64,000 nucleotides of DNA from the sequence record PZ386967.1; one strand, written 5' to 3'. The translations under genes were made by a program, and so were the position numbers. Below the pieces are notes generated by a model. The model searched no databases. It worked only from the letters and a program-made list of their open reading frames with translations, and had not been told where the DNA came from. How positions within the stretch are numbered: the first letter of the stretch is position 1; each line of letters begins with the position of its first letter. The stretch is from a phage. Below, one piece after another: positions 1,260-61,724 of this stretch.

Positions 1260-1318
1260 TTCTATAACTTTGGGCGGGGTATGATTACCCCGTCTATTTG
1301 AAATGCAGGAACTATACC

Positions 1319-1825
1319 ATGACCGATCAACAAATTCAAGATTTATTTTACCTCGTCCATGATAAGTCCCACATCATGCGCCCCGGTACTGTTTCCCCTG
1401 CCGTCCGTGATCTGGTGCAAGAATTGCGCGAACCACAGACGACCACACTTTATCGCGGGTTGCCTAAAGAGGACGTTGCGCGTTTAGAGATGATGTTTGA
1501 ACGAGGCGACATGTTCCAGACATGGGATTCTTGCCTTAGCTTCAGTGAACTGAAGCATGTGGCCAAAAAATTTTCTAAATCGTACGGAACCCAAGCTGTT
1601 GCCCGCATTTGTTACAAACATCGAAACAGACTCCCGGAGGGGCTTAATGTCTATGGTTCTCTAGAAAAATTTGTGAACAAAGGCGATGAATCAGAAATGG
1701 ATATGCTGGACTTGGCGTCCATGGAGAAAGAATGGATATTCTGCCAGCCTCGCGTCATACCAGTTTCAAGAAAAATGGCAACAGACGGCACGATGGTTTT
1801 TACCGTATCACTTGTTACCCTATAA
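1319..1825 (+). CDS. Hypothetical protein; possible ADP-ribosyltransferase-like (R, S-x-S, E-x-E motif order)
   Basis: Start trimmed to Met after AGGAACTATACC leader; motifs LYRG, WDSCLSFS, EKEW in the order of R-S-E class ARTs such as T4 ModA/ModB; weak. Confidence 0.45.
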   Translation: MTDQQIQDLFYLVHDKSHIMRPGTVSPAVRDLVQELREPQTTTLYRGLPKEDVARLEMMFERGDMFQTWDSCLSFSELKHVAKKFSKSYGTQAVARICYKHRNRLPEGLNVYGSLEKFVNKGDESEMDMLDLASMEKEWIFCQPRVIPVSRKMATDGTMVFTVSLVTL

Positions 1826-1877
1826 ACCCACGGCGGGGTATGATTACCCCGTCTATTTGAAACCAAGAGACTATATC

Positions 1878-4309: not shown

Positions 4310-5179
4310 GTGATGCTCCTGACCAAAACAATCGCTGCGGCGATTATCGAAAAGAATAAGGCTTTTGCCCCCAACGTAGCCAAAGTTATGTTGGTACACG
4401 AAGACGCTCGCGTGATCTTCGCCGAGAAGTTCGAGATGGGCGCGAAGTTCTGGTATGCCGACAACTTACGTGAGAGCAAACTTCAGGGTATCATCCACAA
4501 ACTGACTCTGGTCGCCAAGCGTAATGACCAGGGTGACTGGGTCGGCGTTTCTGACTTCAGTACGAAGATCACCCCAAAGGCTCCGCTTTCTCGTCAAGAG
4601 CGCATTCTGGAAGCCCAGGAAAAGCTGCGTGCGGCTCGGAGTACCACAAAGGCGAAGCCAGATGCAAGCCCTGTCATCAAGCCAGCGGTTGTTCCTAAGT
4701 CCAAATACCTCCCGCCCGTGAGTCAAAAGTCTGTGGAGCAATTGGTTGAGAAGCGCAAGGGTGACGTTGTGATGAAGTCTGACTCTTCAGTGGAGTCGTT
4801 CAAGCCGGATCCAGCAGAAGTACAGGCGCTGGCAGAAAAGGTAAAGAATTCACAATTCATTTCCCTGCGCGAACTTGAACCGCCTACTCGCCGTCGTATC
4901 GCCAACGAGCTGTTTGTGTCGTTCAGGTCGGATGGCAAGATCGTCCTGTGCAAAGCCCTGCGCGATGCAATCCCTTGGACAACTCTGAACATGATGGTCA
5001 CTCGCGACTTCAAGCGTTTTGGTATCATGCAAGGCAAGGACTACAACGTCAACCAGAGCGGGACTTATGTTAATCGCGCCATGTGTGACAAACTGACCTT
5101 CCCAGAAGACACCGGAACGATCCGTGTCGTTCTGAATTGGGATGACAAGCTGAACATGTATGTTGGCGATTTCCAATAA
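4310..5179 (+). CDS. Hypothetical protein
   Basis: 289 aa ORF. Confidence 0.5.
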   Translation: MMLLTKTIAAAIIEKNKAFAPNVAKVMLVHEDARVIFAEKFEMGAKFWYADNLRESKLQGIIHKLTLVAKRNDQGDWVGVSDFSTKITPKAPLSRQERILEAQEKLRAARSTTKAKPDASPVIKPAVVPKSKYLPPVSQKSVEQLVEKRKGDVVMKSDSSVESFKPDPAEVQALAEKVKNSQFISLRELEPPTRRRIANELFVSFRSDGKIVLCKALRDAIPWTTLNMMVTRDFKRFGIMQGKDYNVNQSGTYVNRAMCDKLTFPEDTGTIRVVLNWDDKLNMYVGDFQ

Positions 5180-5235
5180 TCAATAACCTCGGGCGGCTTA
5201 TCATAAAGCTGCCCTTTCATTTGAGAGACTATATC

Positions 5236-5898
5236 ATGGAAAAACTTTATTCTATTATCGTCGGTCCTGATCCTGACGGATTATTCTTCGCCTCGTTGTC
5301 TTATATTGCCCACGCCCGTATCGGTAGCTATTACGCATATTGCACACGTGGCCACGACGGTTCCAATATCCTCCATTATAGCCGCCTGAACGATTTCCTG
5401 GCACTTCAACCAGAAGATGTTGTGCTGGCGCGTCGCGTGTTCATCGACTTCAACGCGATGCACAACAACGAAATCGACGCTCGCTACCATGCCATGCGTT
5501 CTATGGACGGGGGAGATTGCATTTATCGTATCGACCATTTTAGTGAGTTTACCGAATGTATTGATTGGTTTATCTCTGATAAAGTGATGGGTGAAAGAAT
5601 CGTCACAACTCCGTGGGCACATGCGGAACAACTTCGTGTGTCTACCGATGCGTACAAAGAAGTCGACAATCTGTGCAACAAGTTCCGCATCTCGGTGACC
5701 TGTAATCAAGACCTGGGCGAAGAGATACAATGGACAGCTGAGTCTCCTCATTTCAGTGGCCTGGTGATGACGGCCGAAACCCGTTCCCGTGCTGTTGTCC
5801 AGTTAGTACTCTGGGCGTTCTACCAGCGCACCCCGTTCTCGTACATGGGGCAGAAAGAGATTGATGAACTCCTGAAGTCTCACGCGGTGGAGGTGTAA
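5236..5898 (+). CDS. Hypothetical protein
   Basis: Start trimmed to MEKLY after GAGAGACTATATC leader; hairpin terminator upstream. Confidence 0.5.
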   Translation: MEKLYSIIVGPDPDGLFFASLSYIAHARIGSYYAYCTRGHDGSNILHYSRLNDFLALQPEDVVLARRVFIDFNAMHNNEIDARYHAMRSMDGGDCIYRIDHFSEFTECIDWFISDKVMGERIVTTPWAHAEQLRVSTDAYKEVDNLCNKFRISVTCNQDLGEEIQWTAESPHFSGLVMTAETRSRAVVQLVLWAFYQRTPFSYMGQKEIDELLKSHAVEV

Positions 5899-6516: not shown

Positions 6517-6795
6517 ATGAATCGTACTGAATTTGTTGCCCACATTGCTTCGACCCAGAACATCACCAAAGGCGAAGCGGAGAAAGTAGTGGCATCCTTT
6601 ATCAACGGTGTTAAGACTGCAGTTGCTGCAGGCGCATCTGTACAGCTGGTCGGCTTCGGTGCGTTCGAAGTGAAACACCAAGAAGCGCGTGAAGGCCGCA
6701 ACCCTCTGGACGGCCAGACCATTCAGATCGCGGCGAAAAACGTTGTGAAATTCAAAGTGGGCGAAGGTCTGAAGAACGCTGCCAACGGCAAGTAA
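6517..6795 (+). CDS. HU/IHF-family histone-like DNA-binding protein
   Basis: 92 aa; MNRTEFVAHIA, GFGAFEV, REGRNP, KFKVGEGLK are typical HU signatures. Confidence 0.85.
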   Translation: MNRTEFVAHIASTQNITKGEAEKVVASFINGVKTAVAAGASVQLVGFGAFEVKHQEAREGRNPLDGQTIQIAAKNVVKFKVGEGLKNAANGK

Positions 6796-16388: not shown

Positions 16389-16436
16389 TCATTCCATAAG
16401 CAACACAACACCAACTTGAAAAGCAGGAACTACACC

Positions 16437-16712
16437 ATGAAAATTATCCTCGACGCATATATCCGCCACGGTCAGAAATACCTGATGGCCAAGGTTTACG
16501 ACGGCGAAGAATTGATCCACGCCCAGACCGCCCCAGCTGCCCAGCTGCGAGAAATCATGTCACGCGACTTCCCTGGTGTTGAAATGGTAGAGCCTACCAA
16601 CCAGGCCGAAGTAGACAAAGAGTGGGAGCGCGAATGGAGTCCAGCGGCTATCGCTCGGGCTGAAAAGAATTGGTCTAACCGCGAAAACGCAAACCGCCCT
16701 TTCCGCCGTTAA
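16437..16712 (+). CDS. Hypothetical protein
   Basis: Start trimmed to MKIILD after CAGGAACTACACC leader. Confidence 0.5.
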   Translation: MKIILDAYIRHGQKYLMAKVYDGEELIHAQTAPAAQLREIMSRDFPGVEMVEPTNQAEVDKEWEREWSPAAIARAEKNWSNRENANRPFRR

Positions 16713-16734
16713 TTTGAACCGAAGGAACTATATC

Positions 16735-17070
16735 ATGACACAACTCAAGAACTTCACCGCCGATGACATGTTTGCCTTCCAGGGTGCTGAGCACTTTGCT
16801 GACGGCTCCGTACCTCGCATCTACTACTTCTCCGACGAAGAAATGGAAGATTTCTTCGCCCTGATGGAAAAGGACTACGAACCAGACGACTTCGTTTATA
16901 TCATCCATCACGCCGAAGGACTGACATTGGGCTGGACGGCCAACAATGAACCAGAAGAAGTAAACTTCCCTGAAGGTATCATGTCAGAGCGCGTCGAATA
17001 TCTACTGGAAGCCCTGGACCCCCACACCCTCCCGCTCTGGGCGATGTCTGTAGCCCAAGTTCAAAAATAA
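16735..17070 (+). CDS. Hypothetical acidic protein
   Basis: Start trimmed to MTQLK after AAGGAACTATATC leader. Confidence 0.5.
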   Translation: MTQLKNFTADDMFAFQGAEHFADGSVPRIYYFSDEEMEDFFALMEKDYEPDDFVYIIHHAEGLTLGWTANNEPEEVNFPEGIMSERVEYLLEALDPHTLPLWAMSVAQVQK

Positions 17071-20130: not shown

Positions 20131-20154
20131 TCATTGAAAGCCCCTTCGGGGGCT

Positions 20155-20162
20155 TATAAATA
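20155..20162 (+). promoter_or_regulatory. T4-type late promoter TATAAATA
   Basis: Exact octamer about 25 nt upstream of ATG at 20188, after a hairpin terminator; coordinates approximate. Confidence 0.45.
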
Positions 20163-25047: not shown

Positions 25048-25130
25048 GTAACTCGCCAACCCTCCCCGCCGCCTTCAATCTACGAGGGCGGCGTATAATA
25101 AAACCTGCGTAAACAAACCCGAGGAACACC

Positions 25131-29115: not shown

Positions 29116-29122
29116 CAAGCCA

Positions 29123-29170
29123 AAGCCCCTCAATGAGGGGCTTTACTTCTATAATCCCTGCGCTTATACT
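29123..29170 (+). promoter_or_regulatory. Terminator hairpin plus early-type promoter TTTACT-N17-TATACT
   Basis: AGCCCCTC-aat-GAGGGGCT hairpin then promoter; coordinates approximate. Confidence 0.45.
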
Positions 29171-29221
29171 TCCCAGTAATTCATTGGCATTCGCCACAAA
29201 TTGAACAGCAGGAACTATATC

Positions 29222-29461
29222 ATGACCGACTCTGAAGTCTACGACACCTCAATGAAATACCACGCCATGACAGCCAAACGCGGCTGTGCTGCTAACAAGG
29301 CATATTGGATAGGTGAACTCAGAACCCTCCGCGCCGTGGTCAACCACGAAATCATTATGAATCACGACAACAACGGTCAAGGTAAAGACCGAGAAGAATT
29401 GAAGGTTGCTCGTGAACGTCTTCGCTTTGGTCTGACCAAAGCCCTTGAATATGTGAAATAA
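29222..29461 (+). CDS. Hypothetical protein
   Basis: Start trimmed to MTDSEV after CAGGAACTATATC leader. Confidence 0.5.
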   Translation: MTDSEVYDTSMKYHAMTAKRGCAANKAYWIGELRTLRAVVNHEIIMNHDNNGQGKDREELKVARERLRFGLTKALEYVK

Positions 29462-29472
29462 GGAACTATATC

Positions 29473-29934
29473 ATGACAAACAAAGTACTCACCAACCCAC
29501 TGCACAACTTCGGTTACATTCAACTCCCTCTGGTGATCGACACCCTGTACGCCGACGACAAAGAAGAGATCTGCTGGTCACCCACCGCACTGATTGAACG
29601 CGAAATCTTCAAGTCTGTTGTTGATGTCATGTTCCGTATCGGTCGCAATGGACCTCTGGTCTACCTCGGCAAGGTGACTGAGTTGAAGACAAGCCACAAC
29701 GAACGCTTCCTTCGTATCGATACAACGGGGTGCTCTCATCAGGACTTCAACACATTGCGCAATTATGTTCTGGTCAACCGCCCGGTCAGTCAACACCGCC
29801 CGTATCTGACGTCAATGCACATCGACAATTTCATCACCGACGTACACCTCCGCGCCGAAACCCTCCATGAAGAGGAAACAGGCCGAGCTATCGACACAGT
29901 CTTAAATATGGTTGTGATCACCCTGGCGGAGTAG
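29473..29934 (+). CDS. Hypothetical protein
   Basis: ATG preceded by AAGGAACTATATC leader. Confidence 0.5.
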   Translation: MTNKVLTNPLHNFGYIQLPLVIDTLYADDKEEICWSPTALIEREIFKSVVDVMFRIGRNGPLVYLGKVTELKTSHNERFLRIDTTGCSHQDFNTLRNYVLVNRPVSQHRPYLTSMHIDNFITDVHLRAETLHEEETGRAIDTVLNMVVITLAE

Positions 29935-36143: not shown

Positions 36144-36383
36144 ATGAGCAAAGAATCAATTTACAGCGCAATGAAAGCCTCCGAATTCCTTCCTGGCTCT
36201 ATGCGCTGGCGTGTGGGTAGCCTGAACGAGCATGCCGACCAGACGGATCGTATTCGTTACGTTACCCCTGATGGTCGCTCATATGTCGTTGAGTATCACA
36301 CGCACGACGAAGGCAAGAAGACGTTTTCGGACGTGTTCGACATTATTGAAATTGACCCAGCAAATCAAGTGCTTAAAGGTTAA
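36144..36383 (+). CDS. Hypothetical protein
   Basis: 79 aa ORF. Confidence 0.4.
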   Translation: MSKESIYSAMKASEFLPGSMRWRVGSLNEHADQTDRIRYVTPDGRSYVVEYHTHDEGKKTFSDVFDIIEIDPANQVLKG

Positions 36384-36481
36384 TTCAATGTAAGATCGGG
36401 GTATAATTACCCCGCTTTGTAGCAAACTGAAATACATGTAACAGAATAGCCCTGAGGGGCGGAAACAGAGGAAATTAAGAA

Positions 36482-37492
36482 ATGGGTAATTTATTCGATC
36501 GTCTGAAAGCATCTCGTGGCCAGCAAACTGAAGCAATGCAGGCGCGTCTTGCACAGCAAGGCCAGAAGTCCGGTTTCCAGAAGGATCCTCGCATCTGGAA
36601 ATGGACTTGGAACAAAGATGGTATCTCCGAGAATATCATCCGCTTCCTGCCAGTCCCGCTGGTAGACCTCAAGGCACAGGAAGAAGGGACGATCGATAAA
36701 GATCAGATCCTCACCCCTTGTGCCATGATCATGAAGCATCAGTTCCAAGGACCTGGTGGTTGGTACATTGAGAACTCACCTCAGACGTTCGGCAACGACG
36801 ATCCGGTGCGCGACCATGACCGTCCGCTGTGGGCGCAGCAGAAAGAAACGAACGACGAAAAGCTGAAGGACATCCTGAAGAAACGTCTACCCAACACCGA
36901 TTACTACGCTAACATTCTGGTGATCAAAGATGTCAACGTACCGGAAAACAACGGCAAGGTCTTCCTGTTGAAATTTGGTAACGCCATCAAGAAAATCCTG
37001 GATCAGGCGCAGAATCCTAAGTTCCCAACCGACCCTAAATTCGATCCGTTCGATCTGTGGGAAGGTGCCAACCTGAACCTGAAGCTCTTTGGCGAGCAGA
37101 AGAAGTTTGGGAACTGGGAAGGTCTGGTGGCAAACTTCAGTAAGGTGGTGTGGGAGAACCCTGCCCCGCTGAGTGATGACGAAGCGTATATGGAAGACGT
37201 CTGGTCTCGTGAGCATAGCCTGTTTGAATTCTTCAATCCGGCTAACTTCAAAGACTACGACACCCTGGAAAAGCGCCTGCGCAAAGTTCTGGCAATTCCT
37301 GATGACCAGCCTCTGGTTGAAGGTGGTGCAGCCACGATGGCTCATGCTCCTAGCACCCAGACTACACATCAGCCAACTGCTCAAGACAGCCTGAAACAGC
37401 AACAGGCCGCGCCGTCGCAGGCTCAGACTCAACCGGATGCCAGAAACACGGCTACCATTGATGAATTCGAGCAGTATCTCAAGTCTAACTGA
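36482..37492 (+). CDS. 32: Single-stranded DNA-binding protein gp32
   Basis: IRFLP, YYANILVIKDVNVPENNGKVF and WEGANLNLK match T4 gp32 (IRFLP, [30 protein letters not shown]); acidic Q/A/P-rich C-terminal tail. Confidence 0.85.
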   Translation: MGNLFDRLKASRGQQTEAMQARLAQQGQKSGFQKDPRIWKWTWNKDGISENIIRFLPVPLVDLKAQEEGTIDKDQILTPCAMIMKHQFQGPGGWYIENSPQTFGNDDPVRDHDRPLWAQQKETNDEKLKDILKKRLPNTDYYANILVIKDVNVPENNGKVFLLKFGNAIKKILDQAQNPKFPTDPKFDPFDLWEGANLNLKLFGEQKKFGNWEGLVANFSKVVWENPAPLSDDEAYMEDVWSREHSLFEFFNPANFKDYDTLEKRLRKVLAIPDDQPLVEGGAATMAHAPSTQTTHQPTAQDSLKQQQAAPSQAQTQPDARNTATIDEFEQYLKSN

Positions 37493-41360: not shown

Positions 41361-41434
41361 TTTAAGTTCAGAAACTGTTCAAAAGATGAAGGGGCTGCTA
41401 TAATAGCAGCTCCTTTTGTTTATTGGAGCAGTTT

Positions 41435-42094
41435 ATGTCCTACTCCCTGAAGGGGTTGATGAAGCGCCCCGTCCACACATTCTTTAAACCACCCGTCGTA
41501 AAGGGGATCTACCCAGCACGAGGGCAAATCTACTACGTCAAAGGCTCCAATGGTAGCGGTAAATCCACTGTGCCGTCTCAGCTGGCGGAGAGGGATCCTC
41601 AGGCGTATGTCGTGACCCATAATGGCAAGGTCATGCTGACTGTCTGTCCTTCGTTCAACGTGGTCTGTATCGGTAAATATGACAAGTCGAAGTCCAAGGG
41701 GGTTGATTCCCTGAAGGACACTGAGCAGATGTTGTTCGCGTTGTCTATTGCTGACCAACCAGAATACTTGAAATATGATGTGATTTTCGAAGGTATCATT
41801 CCATCCACATTATTGAGTTCTTGGATCCCCCGTCTGACACGCCCACCACGTGAATTGGTTGTGCTCTTTATGGACACTCCTCTTGAAACGTGTATCACCC
41901 GCGTTAAATCACGTAACGGCGGTGTGGACTTCAATGAAAGTCTGGTGGTCGAGAAGTGGGAGAGAGTTCATGACCATCGTCAACGACATAAAGACTTGTT
42001 CCCTACGGTAGCTGCGGGTATGATGAAGTCTCACGGCCTAACGGTAGACCAGGCTGTGATGGCATTCCTCTGTCGTGATTTTGGGAGTATCTGA
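41435..42094 (+). CDS. P-loop kinase of unknown substrate (candidate nucleotide or DNA-base kinase)
   Basis: Start trimmed to MSYSL; Walker A GSNGSGKST; first gene of a translationally coupled nucleotide-metabolism operon. Confidence 0.5.
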   Translation: MSYSLKGLMKRPVHTFFKPPVVKGIYPARGQIYYVKGSNGSGKSTVPSQLAERDPQAYVVTHNGKVMLTVCPSFNVVCIGKYDKSKSKGVDSLKDTEQMLFALSIADQPEYLKYDVIFEGIIPSTLLSSWIPRLTRPPRELVVLFMDTPLETCITRVKSRNGGVDFNESLVVEKWERVHDHRQRHKDLFPTVAAGMMKSHGLTVDQAVMAFLCRDFGSI

Positions 42095-47607: not shown

Positions 47608-47671
47608 GCAATTCAATAAAGCGGGTCATAGGGTATAATTCTATGATCTGAATGTAAACCAGGAGCACATC

Positions 47672-48007
47672 ATGTCACACAATGATTTTATGGCTGGCCT
47701 GGTGCAGGCCGCCAAACAGGTGTGCCACACCAAACAAGCGATTGAGCTGAGTCCGGAGCAGACTCTGGAGTTCTTCAACAATCGTAAAATCTGGGAGGAA
47801 TATGGAATTGGTATGATATGCCAAGAGGGTGAACTCGTACAGCTGGATCTGCCGTCATTCCCCCTTCCAGTGCGCACTAACACAGTGGAATGGTATACGA
47901 CGGAAGATGGTGTAGAGATCATCCCGAAGTTCCAGTATCACTCCATCGTAAACTTCTTTTTACGCCGTTGCGGGACTAATCTGATCCCACAAGGTATGAG
48001 ATCCTAA
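47672..48007 (+). CDS. Hypothetical protein
   Basis: 111 aa ORF. Confidence 0.4.
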   Translation: MSHNDFMAGLVQAAKQVCHTKQAIELSPEQTLEFFNNRKIWEEYGIGMICQEGELVQLDLPSFPLPVRTNTVEWYTTEDGVEIIPKFQYHSIVNFFLRRCGTNLIPQGMRS

Positions 48008-49983: not shown

Positions 49984-50213
49984 CATGCGCAAGTATTTCA
50001 ACTGGCTGTTGGCAAGCCCCTGAGCACCGAAATCCGTTGTCTGATAGATGCGATCGATGTTGAAATGGAATGGCGAGCGCCGGATTAATCGCACAAAGGC
50101 TCAGGCCGAAATTAAAATCGTGAAGAAGTCCACAAGGCTCTGGGTTTCATAACAAATAATTCAATAAACTATTCACCCATATAATACATGGGAACTTACA
50201 GAAGGAACAGACC

Positions 50214-51756: not shown

Positions 51757-51811
51757 TGGATACAGAAGTCATTATCAGCCAAGCAAGATCCCACACCCGC
51801 CAATAATCTAT

Positions 51812-51844
51812 TGAAGTCCCCAGGGTTATAATAGCAGCACATAT
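51812..51844 (+). promoter_or_regulatory. Perfect 11-bp inverted repeat containing TATAAT upstream of ligase gene
   Basis: CCAGGGTTATA-atagcagcaca-TATAACCCTGG; coordinates approximate. Confidence 0.4.
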
Positions 51845-51861
51845 AACCCTGGAGACACCGC

Positions 51862-53292
51862 ATGATCCCTATCCTTGAAACAGTCCGCCGACTTCGCGAA
51901 ACCAAAGGCAGCAATGCGAAGAAAGCCGTGCTGACCGAAGCATTCAAGAACAACCCAGACTTGGCAGACTTCCTGCAGTATGTCTATGACCCAATGACGT
52001 CGTTCTATCGGACTGAGTTGAAGCTCAGCGCGTACCCTCGCATGCTCGTCCGTGAGAAGACTGATGACATTAGCGAAGTCTATGGCGTCCTCGACCAGAT
52101 GGCGCAGCGCCTTGTCGGTGGCCAAAAGGCTGATGCCCTGTTGGCCTCTGTCGCCCTGAAGATGGATCCCCAATACCACGAACTCATTCAGATGATCCTA
52201 GACCGTGATATCAAGGCGGGTATCGCTGAGAAGGGCATCAATGCAGCGTTCAAAGCAGCGGGTGGCACAGGCCGACTGATCAACATCCTTCCGTATCATC
52301 GTTATGACAACATGACGATTGACCTGCTGAAGAAGATGGACTTCAAGCGTGGTGTCTACAGCCAGCTGAAGTCAGACGGTATGTTCGCCAACATCATATG
52401 TCGGTACAATAAAGAGCCTGAGATTCGCTCTCGATCCGGTTCCCTTATCGCAGGCGGTTCGGTTGACAACCTGTCACTGGTGTTCAAGGACATCATCTAC
52501 GATGCGGGGATTGGTGAGAGTGTGTTCCATGGTGAACTTCTCGTTGTTGACCTCAAGTCGAATACCATCCTGCCTCGTGCTGTCGGTAACGGTAAACTCA
52601 ACAGCGTGATTCAGACAGGAGAACCCCTAGAAGATCGTTATCGGGTGATCTACCGGGTGTGGGATGTTATCCCGTACGACAACTGGTTCAACGCCCAGCG
52701 CGTGGACACCCCGTATGAAACCCGCTTCGACATGATCATGCAAATGTTTTGTGAAGACGACGGTCTGGTTCAGGTTCAAGAAACCCGTGTTGTTCACTCA
52801 TTTGCCGAAGCCGTCGACCACTTCAAAGACGCGCTGGCTCGCAAAGAAGAAGGCACGATATGTAAGGCCGCAGACATGCCGTGGGAAGATGGTACTTCTT
52901 CTGAAGGTCTGAAGCTGAAGATGGAGGTTGAGTGTGACCTTGAAATCGTGGGCTTCAACGAGGCTGACAAGAAGGGTAAACACGCCAAGACTTTTGGCTC
53001 ACTGATTTGTAAAACTTCCGATGGCCTGCTTGTTGTTGGCGTATCAGGGATCTCAGATGAGCTGAGACGCCATATGTGGGAGAACCAGGGCGATTACATT
53101 GGCAAGATCGCCGCAGTGCTCTCCAATGGCGTACAGGACAAGACAGACGATGCGATGAAGTCTTTGTTCCTACCTCGCCTTGTAGAAGTCCGCATTGACA
53201 AGAAAGTGGCCAACACACTGGATGAAGTCTATGCGATACAGAAAGCGTACATCGAAAACATCGCATTCCTGTTGGAGAAGGGTAATGGGTGA
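51862..53292 (+). CDS. 30: ATP-dependent DNA ligase
   Basis: Adenylation motif KSDGM (KxDG); size and layout of phage ATP-dependent ligase. Confidence 0.75.
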   Translation: MIPILETVRRLRETKGSNAKKAVLTEAFKNNPDLADFLQYVYDPMTSFYRTELKLSAYPRMLVREKTDDISEVYGVLDQMAQRLVGGQKADALLASVALKMDPQYHELIQMILDRDIKAGIAEKGINAAFKAAGGTGRLINILPYHRYDNMTIDLLKKMDFKRGVYSQLKSDGMFANIICRYNKEPEIRSRSGSLIAGGSVDNLSLVFKDIIYDAGIGESVFHGELLVVDLKSNTILPRAVGNGKLNSVIQTGEPLEDRYRVIYRVWDVIPYDNWFNAQRVDTPYETRFDMIMQMFCEDDGLVQVQETRVVHSFAEAVDHFKDALARKEEGTICKAADMPWEDGTSSEGLKLKMEVECDLEIVGFNEADKKGKHAKTFGSLICKTSDGLLVVGVSGISDELRRHMWENQGDYIGKIAAVLSNGVQDKTDDAMKSLFLPRLVEVRIDKKVANTLDEVYAIQKAYIENIAFLLEKGNG

Positions 53293-61655: not shown

Positions 61656-61724
61656 TTCCGGTTCCTCTTAATAAACGAAGGGAAGTATATACTCCCCCTT
61701 CTTCAATAACCGCTGAATCTTTAT

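Follow-up and report, generated by a model that had tools for sequence, protein, structure and literature searches.

The 64,000-nucleotide (nt) stretch of phage DNA analysed here (sequence record PZ386967.1; referred to below as the window) comes from an Agtrevirus-like phage of the Ackermannviridae, the former ViI-like phages. Its first 6 kb and the region from 30 to 54 kb are 97–98% identical to Escherichia phage vB_EcoM-ZQ1 (ZQ1) and Enterobacter phage fGh-Ecl02, and over the same stretches the identity to Shigella phage Ag3 is ~92%. The gene list was obtained by mapping the fGh-Ecl02 annotation onto the window. Nearly all of the genes between 1 and 54.6 kb are on the plus strand, as are the features described below unless stated otherwise. 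The subject of the analysis is a short intergenic hairpin element that is present twice near the left end of the window (C1, 1260–1321; C2, 1818–1880), together with hairpins of similar design elsewhere. A sequence-only reading of this DNA had grouped five such hairpins, upstream of the genes at 1319 and 1878, gene 32, a nucleotide-kinase operon and the DNA ligase gene, as one family built around a −10-like hexamer, and had suggested that they might be terminators, operators or RNA-processing signals.

The C1 and C2 cassettes and the genes around them

C1 lies between the open reading frames (ORFs) 1020–1259 and 1319–1825, an intergenic position like that of the PeSL elements of T4-type phages. 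It begins with an upstream box, TTCTATAA (1260–1267), the position of which is occupied by TTCAATAA or ATCAATAA in other genera. The box is followed by a hairpin with a 9-bp stem and a 4-nt loop, GGCGGGGTA-tgat-TACCCCGTC (1273–1294), which carries TATGAT at 1280–1285, and then by a weak U-tract (TATTTGAAA) and a conserved translation start region (AGGAACTATACC-ATG) that together span 1295–1321. The ATG at 1319 opens an optional ADP-ribosyltransferase-like ORF (1319–1825). C2 has a degenerate box (CCCTATAA, 1818–1825) that overlaps the stop codon of this ORF, the same hairpin at 1832–1853 (TATGAT at 1839–1844), and a tail with a translation start region (TATTTGAAACCAAGAGACTATATC-ATG, 1854–1880) that opens the gene 1878–2255.

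Both hairpins have the sequence GGCGGGGTAtgatTACCCCGTC. C1 and C2 are identical over 31 nt (GGCGGGGTATGATTACCCCGTCTATTTGAAA), and their similarity spans the whole distance from an upstream CTATAA to the ATG. The core GGGGTATGATTACCCC occurs exactly at 1276–1291 and 1835–1850, upstream of the genes at 1319 and 1878, and a variant with one mismatch, GGGGTATAATTACCCC, is found upstream of gene 32 (36398–36413), in line with the sequence-only reading. When up to three mismatches are allowed the window contains four matches to GGGGTATGATTACCCC, compared with 0.27 expected, a number reached in none of 100 shuffles; the fourth match (11506) is inside a gene and is unrelated. The arms form a G-run/C-run stem-loop of the PeSL kind (GGCGGGGTA/TACCCCGTC, −16.8 to −18.8 kcal/mol). 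The Shine-Dalgarno sequence of both cassettes is 12–15 nt past the stem and is left unpaired by the hairpin, so that the ribosome-binding site is not sequestered.

C1 and C2 flank the optional ORF 1319–1825, which encodes 168 amino acids and matches PHROG 832, ‘RNA polymerase ADP-ribosylase’ (E 6e-15); no Pfam match and no PDB sequence match were obtained. Only some Ackermannviridae carry the gene; Kutter et al. (2011) had reported no Alt or ModA homologues in ViI-like phages. Phages Maynard, PC3, LHE287, Ag3 and SP-9-14 have no ORF at this place and a single hybrid copy of the cassette, with the left flank of C1 and the right flank of C2. The hairpin is followed by denV in LIMEstone1, KWBSE43-6 and many Kuttervirus genomes, and by a 92-amino-acid ORF or further genes in others; at least six different genes were found behind the same C cassette. 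The 52-nt element was recovered from 279 phage records, with one to three copies in each. In ZQ1 and MK-13 copy 2 differs, whereas the two copies in the window are identical over 31 nt, which suggests recent conversion between C1 and C2.

Presence, absence or replacement of a single gene between such repeats, an indel-flanking behaviour described for PeSLs, is seen for ORF 1319–1825 and in three more cases in the window. The optional ORF 661–885 is bounded by PeSL-like repeats, and two others are bounded by a translation-start repeat, TTGAA-N-AGGAACTATATC-ATG (TTGAA-N-AGGAACTAyAyC-ATG): ORF 16437–16712, with repeats at 16416–16439 and 16714–16737, and ORF 29222–29461, with the same repeat at 29201–29224 and 29453–29475. 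All three ORFs are missing from fGh-Ecl02, which has hybrid single copies at these places. Paralogy of the two 79-amino-acid ORFs that precede C1 and the gene 32 hairpin was considered and rejected, as they show no similarity. Two records named ‘Enterococcus phage Efm 3-10’ (OR844942.1 and OR844945.1) contain fragments that are near-identical to this Ackermannviridae locus, and are probably mixed or contaminated assemblies.

Conservation of the stem and of the apex hexamer

As sense RNA, the five hairpins noted earlier have predicted folding energies of −18.8, −16.8, −12.8, −19.7 and −20.4 kcal/mol (z-scores of −3.3 to −5.8), and for the C hairpin the antisense fold is weaker (−11.6 versus −18.8 kcal/mol). 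To follow the stem across relatives, 25 distinct C-type instances were collected, from metagenomes and from genomes of Agtrevirus, Limestonevirus, Kuttervirus and Taipeivirus. Paired cells make up 98.7% of all pair cells, with one A·C mismatch only, compared with 43–64% in controls in which the partner was slid by one to three columns. Compensatory G-C to A-U changes are found at pair 5 in Ag3 and SP-9-14 and at pair 2 in Taipeivirus, and four further pairs vary by G·U only, so that pairing is kept in the sense transcript and lost in the antisense. The covariation check proposed in the sequence-only reading therefore came out in favour of an RNA stem: the compensatory and G·U-only substitutions fit a C-type stem that is selected in the sense transcript, and do not fit a palindrome recognised by a protein in the DNA.

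The hairpins are of the terminator type, as had been suggested: they lie in the sense orientation after stop codons, and their counterparts in related genomes carry terminator annotations. Among the rho-independent terminators of the Ag3 paper are the orthologues Torf138 (ggcgaggtatgattgcctcgcccattt), Torf075 (cggggtataattaccccgctttgt) and Torf069, and the C-type hairpin is an annotated terminator in LIMEstone1 and KWBSE43-6. The hairpin of the 41389 type is annotated twice in the Ag3 paper, without comment, as Torf069 and as the early promoter Porf067 (TTcAat...TGcTATAAT). The C1/C2 tail TATTTGAA, with four T in eight, was not called by our terminator scan; ARNOLD and manual annotation did call it in relatives. 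The U-tract threshold of the scan is reached by the hairpins at 41389 and 5191 and not by those at 47622 and 51820; since the last two have no U-tract, termination is not the universal role of the stems.

No Rfam 15 family matched at the gathering score anywhere in the window. An 18-mer of the element gave 12 scattered exact hits to unrelated bacteria in 596 Gb, compared with a few tens by our own estimate of chance, and an origin from the host or from REP/ERIC-like repeats was rejected because these chance-level hits were the only ones in the 596 Gb of bacterial genomes. A metagenome scan with the tail/Shine-Dalgarno pattern returned 25 loci, of which three are true relatives; these gave one new apex variant, TATTAT (locus L037).

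The embedded hexamer goes beyond coincidence, as judged from its enrichment at the apex, its conservation and the bipartite motif described below. Among the 28 intergenic hairpins of the window, nine have a TATAAT-like apex (at least five of six positions) where 2.1 are expected, and four have a perfect TATAAT where 0.15 are expected (P<5e-5 in both cases). No perfect TATAAT apex was found on the antisense strand of the 28 hairpins.

Orthologous sites in other genera keep the hexamer while the stem changes. The cassette at 5179–5238 is paralogous, with the box ATCAATAA (5179–5186), a hairpin GGGCGGCTT-atcata-AAGCTGCCC (5191–5214) with TATCAT at its apex (5199–5204), a T-run and GAGAGACTATATC-ATG (ATG at 5236). 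Its orthologues have different stems and read TATCAT in Agtrevirus and Limestonevirus, TATTAT in Kuttervirus and TATAAT in Taipeivirus, so that only the least constrained position of a −10 varies. The cassette after the gp41 helicase gene (47612–47650; ATG at 47672) has the box TTCAATAA (47612–47619) and a hairpin without a T-run (47622–47650) with TATAAT at its apex (47634–47639). TATAAT and TCAATA are invariant at this site while the stem covaries, with three compensatory pairs across genera, and in a phiMAM1-like phage the same TATAAT is enclosed by a stem of quite another sequence, GTGGTA-taat-TACCAC. These two hairpins, of the same design, had not been included in the sequence-only reading.

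At gene 32 (36384–36414; gp32 ATG at 36482) the box is TTCAATGT (36384–36391) and the hairpin CGGGGTAtaatTACCCCG (CGGGGTA-taat-TACCCCG, 36397–36414), with TATAAT at 36402–36407. The hairpin has been lost upstream of gene 32 in Kuttervirus (−2 to −3 kcal/mol, compared with −12 to −16 elsewhere), where GTATAATTAC is kept. The cassette before the nucleotide-kinase/thymidylate-synthase operon (41378–41424; ATG at 41435) has the box TTCAAAAG (41378–41385), a hairpin (41389–41415) with the extended −10 TGCTATAAT at its apex (TATAAT at 41399–41404) and a T-run (41414–41424). The palindrome reported at about 41392, GCTGCTATAATAGCAGC, was located at 41394–41410 within this hairpin. The extended −10 is conserved in four genera, and the differing stem of phiMAM1-like phages still encloses CTATAAT. 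The ligase palindrome also exists, although at 51820–51852 rather than at about 51812. It belongs to a cassette (51806–51854; ATG at 51862) with the box ATCTATTG (51806–51813), and is a hairpin with CCAGGG...CCCTGG arms, an 11-bp stem, an 11-nt loop, TATAAT at 51827–51832 and no T-run. The ligase Shine-Dalgarno sequence GGAG (51851–51854) is half within the 3′ arm, its GG (51851–51852) being paired; among the cassettes of the window, a ribosome-binding site that is partly sequestered in this way was found only here. The five sites do not form a single sequence family as proposed: 41389 is a textbook terminator with a long T-run, whereas 51820 lacks such a run and extends into the Shine-Dalgarno sequence.

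The nested cassettes share the upstream box TTC(A/T)ATAA ~12–14 nt before the hexamer. The pattern TC(A/T)AT-N11–16-TATNAT has 15 matches in the window compared with 1.5 in block shuffles (maximum six). Eleven of the 15 are intergenic, all in the sense orientation relative to the next gene and with an ATG 25–80 nt downstream. The bipartite pattern was first seen on six window sites, and independent support comes from the other nine window matches, from a second genome region and from a ranking of 5-mers. The nine matches outside the sites that defined the pattern include 25075 (before nrdA), 20934 and 50161. In the 50 kb of fGh-Ecl02 that lie outside the window there are nine matches against 1.6 expected; six are intergenic and in the sense orientation, and in three to four of these six the hexamer once more forms a hairpin apex. 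When all 1024 5-mers were ranked by their occurrence 11–16 nt upstream of TATNAT, TCAAT came first in the window (nine versus 1.5) and also in the independent fGh-Ecl02 region (eight versus 1.1). Three occurrences of the motif have no hairpin, two of them in the window (50161 and 20934) and one in the fGh-Ecl02 locus L158 (23604). The spacing between box and hexamer has its mode at 14 nt, which puts the box at about −30 instead of the canonical −35 position.

Several other identities for these sequences were tried and rejected. TGCTTAA at 36370, read as a T4 MotA box in front of gene 32, is 25 nt from the −10 instead of 11–13. A late (gp55) promoter at the apex is not indicated, as TATGATTA and TATAATTA match TATAAATA at only five to seven of eight positions; TATAAATA is found at the gp32 hairpin in phiMAM1-like phages only. 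The upstream CTATAA is a poor σ70 −10 or late promoter, its final T being missing in most phages, and is better described as the TC(A/T)ATAA box. The TTR part of the IHF consensus (WATCAANNNNTTR) is unmatched at the box. ATTGAAG, considered as a second box in the ligase cassette and in a minus-strand cassette at 61678, has inconsistent spacing.

In several lineages the 4-nt loop of the C element is inverted (TGAT to ATCA), giving GGGGTAATCATACCCC in place of GGGGTATGATTACCCC. The flip is carried by copy 2 of ZQ1, the nearest relative, by copy 2 of two IMG/VR genomes and, in AR2819 and 3HA11, by the sole copy, which precedes denV; it was seen even between phages that are ~97% identical. The loci concerned, relative to 1835–1850 of the window, are L159:705–720 (ZQ1), L120:2504, L008:3816, L014:3816 and L056. 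The flip leaves the RNA hairpin unchanged and removes the sense −10. Flips are recurrent, rare (~4 of 265 records) and placed at the tips of the tree, a distribution that fits either recent events or mild counter-selection. A template switch at a quasi-palindrome would be expected to invert the loop between perfect arms in this way. The change from TGAT to ATCA between perfect arms in several unrelated lineages resembles such a mutation, the likeness in mechanism being drawn from the outcome only.

Further cassettes and terminator/promoter overlaps

The window also contains two cassettes of the classical PeSL type. Cassette A (542–611), upstream of the optional ORF 661–885, consists of a terminator hairpin (542–571), a −35 TTTACT (583–588), a 17-nt spacer and a −10 TATTAT (606–611). 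Cassette B (900–968), a repeat of A upstream of the gene 1020–1259, has its hairpin at 900–925, TTTACT at 940–945 and TATTAT at 963–968. A canonical class, TTTAC(T/A)-17-TATNNT directly 3′ of a terminator hairpin, is represented at 542–611, 900–968, 16343 and 29122, with the TTT of the −35 supplied by the U-tract of the hairpin. At 29122 the promoter is TTTACT-17-TATACT and likewise overlaps the U-tract. At 25067–25099 (before nrdA) and 29122–29155 (before ORF 29222) a TCAAT box is located in the loop of a terminator and TATAAT directly after the stem. A third kind of overlap is found at 20138–20162, where a terminator hairpin, AAGCCCC-ttcg-GGGGCTT, is followed by a perfect T4-type late consensus, TATAAATA (20155–20162).

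Some further details concern individual sites. The 12-mer TATAATAGCAGC, which comprises the −10 and putative start region, is common to 41399–41410 and 51827–51838, an identity that is lost at the ligase site in Kuttervirus. In RNA of the 41389 cassette that lacks the 5′ arm, GCTCC of the 3′ arm could instead pair with GGAGC at the Shine-Dalgarno sequence (41410–41431); this alternative stem is weak (5 bp, 11-nt loop), and Taipeivirus changes both of its sides together (GCCTC/GGGGC). On the minus strand at 61678–61699 a hairpin AGGGGGAGT-atat-ACTTCCCTT has TATATA/TATACT at its apex, with ATTGAAG upstream (an extra box shared with the ligase cassette) and a gene start 22 nt downstream. A second candidate for a promoter within a hairpin that sequesters the ribosome-binding site is on the minus strand of fGh-Ecl02 (L158:18872–18930): a 10-bp stem CTCCTGTAGA...TCTACAGGAG with the Shine-Dalgarno sequence in its 3′ arm, a 20-nt loop that holds TATGAT, and a TCTAT box before it. 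The leader of gp32 contains a small conserved stem, GCCC-tgag-GGGC (36449–36460), ~20 nt upstream of the Shine-Dalgarno sequence. This stem covaries across genera (GCCCGAAGGGGC in Kuttervirus, GCCCCCTGGGGC in Taipeivirus) and might, as the leader of T4 gene 32 does, serve as an operator of translation.

A candidate terminator and promoter module

We consider it reasonably likely that 1260–1321 and its copy 1818–1880 are an intergenic cassette of ~60 nt that combines a PeSL-type terminator with a promoter and offers homology for gene swaps. The GC-rich stem-loop, which forms in the sense RNA directly behind the stop codon of the upstream gene and ahead of a weak U-tract, would most likely be a leaky intrinsic terminator or attenuator that also protects the 3′ end of the upstream message. 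The hexamer is best read as a putative promoter −10 nested in the hairpin, which the sequence-only reading had not suggested. The hairpin lies within a bipartite promoter-like motif, with TTC(A/T)ATAA ~12–14 nt before the apex TATNAT; its 5′ arm would serve as the promoter spacer and its 3′ arm and U-tract as the start-site region. Transcription for the next gene would thus be restarted from a promoter made of the spacer, −10 and start region of the hairpin itself, and a transcript started inside the hairpin would not contain the 5′ arm and would therefore not terminate itself. The conserved leader, Shine-Dalgarno sequence and start region come next (ATTTGAA-N-AG(G/A)(A/G)ACTATAyC-ATG). Since half of the ligase Shine-Dalgarno sequence is paired with the 3′ arm, RNA that reads through this cassette would be translated less than RNA started in the hairpin. 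Because the same cassette precedes many genes, its copies would offer homologous stretches through which single genes are inserted, deleted or exchanged by recombination. The repeats, the RNA-level constraint on the stems, the enrichment and conservation of the motif and the junctions of gene gain and loss are direct observations; termination, initiation, the effect on translation and the route of recombination are inferred from them.

This arrangement resembles the PeSLs of T4-type phages, for which promoter and terminator activity and mini-circles have been demonstrated and which include subclasses whose stem-loop overlaps the −10 or separates it from the −35 (Arbiol et al., 2010; PMC2839356). 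PeSLs are described from RB49/phi1 and were later extended to T4/PST and KVP40/nt-1 (Comeau et al., 2014; PMC4122927). The shared features are a short intergenic G-run/C-run stem-loop with a putative σ70-type promoter and a Shine-Dalgarno/ATG region, a concentration among small non-essential genes, and copies that flank single-gene indels or replacements in close relatives; classical copies (TTTACT-17-TATTAT) are present in the same window at 542–611 and 900–968. The differences are that PeSLs were defined in T4-type myoviruses and not in the Ackermannviridae, that the nested cassettes have TTC(A/T)ATAA ~14 nt from the −10 instead of a canonical −35, and that the cassettes are shorter (~60 versus ~100 nt). 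C1 and C2 have the −10-like TATGAT and no −35 at ~17 nt, which the cassettes at 542–611 and 900–968 do have. The elements are thus like PeSLs in position, structure and the flanking of indels and unlike them in the −35, and would be a related variant rather than proven members.

Other known systems are matched in part. In T4 e, 49, soc and I-TevI (PMC3014915) a promoter is located inside a hairpin that sequesters the ribosome-binding site, and the ligase cassette is alike, with a promoter-like −10 in the 5′ half of its conserved hairpin. There, however, the internal element is TATAAT, of the σ70 type, and not the late consensus TATAAATA, only the GG of GGAG is paired, and C1 and C2 do not touch the Shine-Dalgarno sequence. 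The likeness to rho-independent terminators lies in the GC-rich stem of 7–13 bp, the loop of 3–6 nt, the position 3′ of a stop codon and the T-rich sequence that follows. Only 41389 and 5191, though, have a strong U-tract; C1, C2 and 36397 have a weak one and 47622 and 51820 none, and the conservation of the apex and flanks goes far beyond what a terminator requires. In T4 middle promoters a MotA box centred near −30 is followed after ~12 bp by a σ70 −10 (PMC2988021). The likeness to these is one of layout only, with a box of 8–9 bp that replaces the −35 and ends ~12 bp before a TAnnnT −10, and of placement before replication and nucleotide-metabolism genes (gp32, ligase, nrdA and the kinase operon). 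The box itself is unrelated (TTCAATAA versus TGCTTtA), and both MotA and AsiA are reported to be absent from ViI-like phages.

A number of points weigh against the combined terminator and promoter reading, and its promoter half is the weakest part of the claim at C1 and C2 themselves. TATGAT is dispensable at the C element, because a few phages have the inverted loop (TAATCATA). The box of C2 is degenerate, a canonical −35 is absent, and a box ~14 nt from the −10, not 17, would by established σ70 rules make a poor promoter on its own. On the terminator side, the U-tract of C1 and C2 (UAUUUGAA) is short and falls below the scan threshold of five T in eight, and the 47622 and 51820 hairpins have none. 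The literature that was searched contains no transcript data for the Ackermannviridae.

A simpler explanation is that the hairpins are plain rho-independent terminators or attenuators, with the apex TATNAT a by-product of A/U-rich stem tops and shared ancestry. This would account for their sense orientation after stop codons, the terminator annotations in Ag3, LIMEstone1 and KWBSE43-6, the RNA-level selection on the stem, loop flips without loss of the element and the lack of a −35 at 17 nt. We nevertheless regard it as unlikely, given that apex TATNAT is enriched approximately fourfold, with perfect TATAAT in excess on the sense strand only, that TATNAT is retained where stems have been replaced or lost, that the box and −10 occur as a pair without any hairpin at 50161, 20934 and L158 23604, and that flipped loops are rare and restricted to the tips of the tree; the two hairpins that have no U-tract also fit it poorly. 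Weak or missing U-tracts at several sites and a constrained sense-strand structure would equally suit determinants of stability or processing only, such as 3′ exonuclease barriers or 5′ caps left by RNase E cleavage of polycistronic early RNA. A further point in favour of such a role is that the downstream gene starts only 22–25 nt past the stem, so that read-through would be needed if there is no internal promoter. Such a role would leave both the conserved TATNAT and the upstream box, which is outside the protected RNA, unexplained; no known RNase recognition motif was identified and there is no Rfam match, and we judge it improbable. The specific RNA-processing signal suggested by the sequence-only reading likewise found no support.

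That the palindromes are DNA operators or recombination sites for a phage protein, for example an HU/TF1-like protein or a site-specific recombinase, is very improbable. In its favour are the perfect DNA symmetry of the core, the HU-family protein encoded at 6517–6795 and the speculation of Arbiol et al. that GGGG...CCCC stems might be targets of proteins. However, substitutions break the DNA symmetry and keep the RNA pairing (G·U, at four pairs), compensatory changes alter both half-sites, the stems at orthologous sites of other genera are unrelated, and gene-loss junctions look like ordinary homologous crossovers anywhere in the cassette, including the translation-start repeat. Two-fold symmetric DNA conserved in both half-sites was not found among the C-type instances. 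The operator suggestion thus failed on the sense-only G·U pairing, the two compensatory pairs, the invertible loop and the use of different stems at one site by different genera.

If the combined terminator and promoter reading is followed further, TTC(A/T)ATAA-N~12-TATNAT might be the missing early or middle promoter class of the ViI-like phages, dependent on a phage factor (through MotA/AsiA-like σ appropriation or an HU/TF1-like architectural protein), with terminator stems deliberately threaded through spacer and start site. We put this forward as a doubtful possibility. An unknown phage factor may be involved because the box near −30 is too close for an ordinary σ70 −35 contact. Such early and middle promoters could not be found by informatics, and ViI-like phages were reported to have no MotA, AsiA, Alt or ModA (Kutter et al., 2011); a 2024 review of the Ackermannviridae does not mention promoters, terminators or transcriptomes. 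The window encodes an HU/IHF-family DNA-binding protein (6517–6795; PF00216, E 6e-29), called ‘transcription factor’ in phage Maynard. This protein recalls TF1 of phage SPO1, which contains hydroxymethyluracil, and is a candidate architectural factor for promoters with a short spacer. If the idea holds, the threaded stems would leave each gene module insulated and self-driven within ~60 nt.

That these hairpins are of the terminator type was already known, and they were annotated as such; the present analysis adds a conserved promoter-like motif, which is statistically solid, and PeSL-like gene shuffling in the Ackermannviridae. The motif provides a concrete promoter candidate with coordinates before gp32, the ligase gene, nrdA, the nucleotide-kinase operon and several small genes, and many features labelled only ‘terminator’ probably also carry a promoter. 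The cassettes would explain how accessory genes (ADP-ribosyltransferase-like, DenV, lipoprotein-like and others) are swapped at fixed junctions in phages that are used therapeutically, and would extend the PeSL idea of modular shuffling to a second family of large myoviruses.

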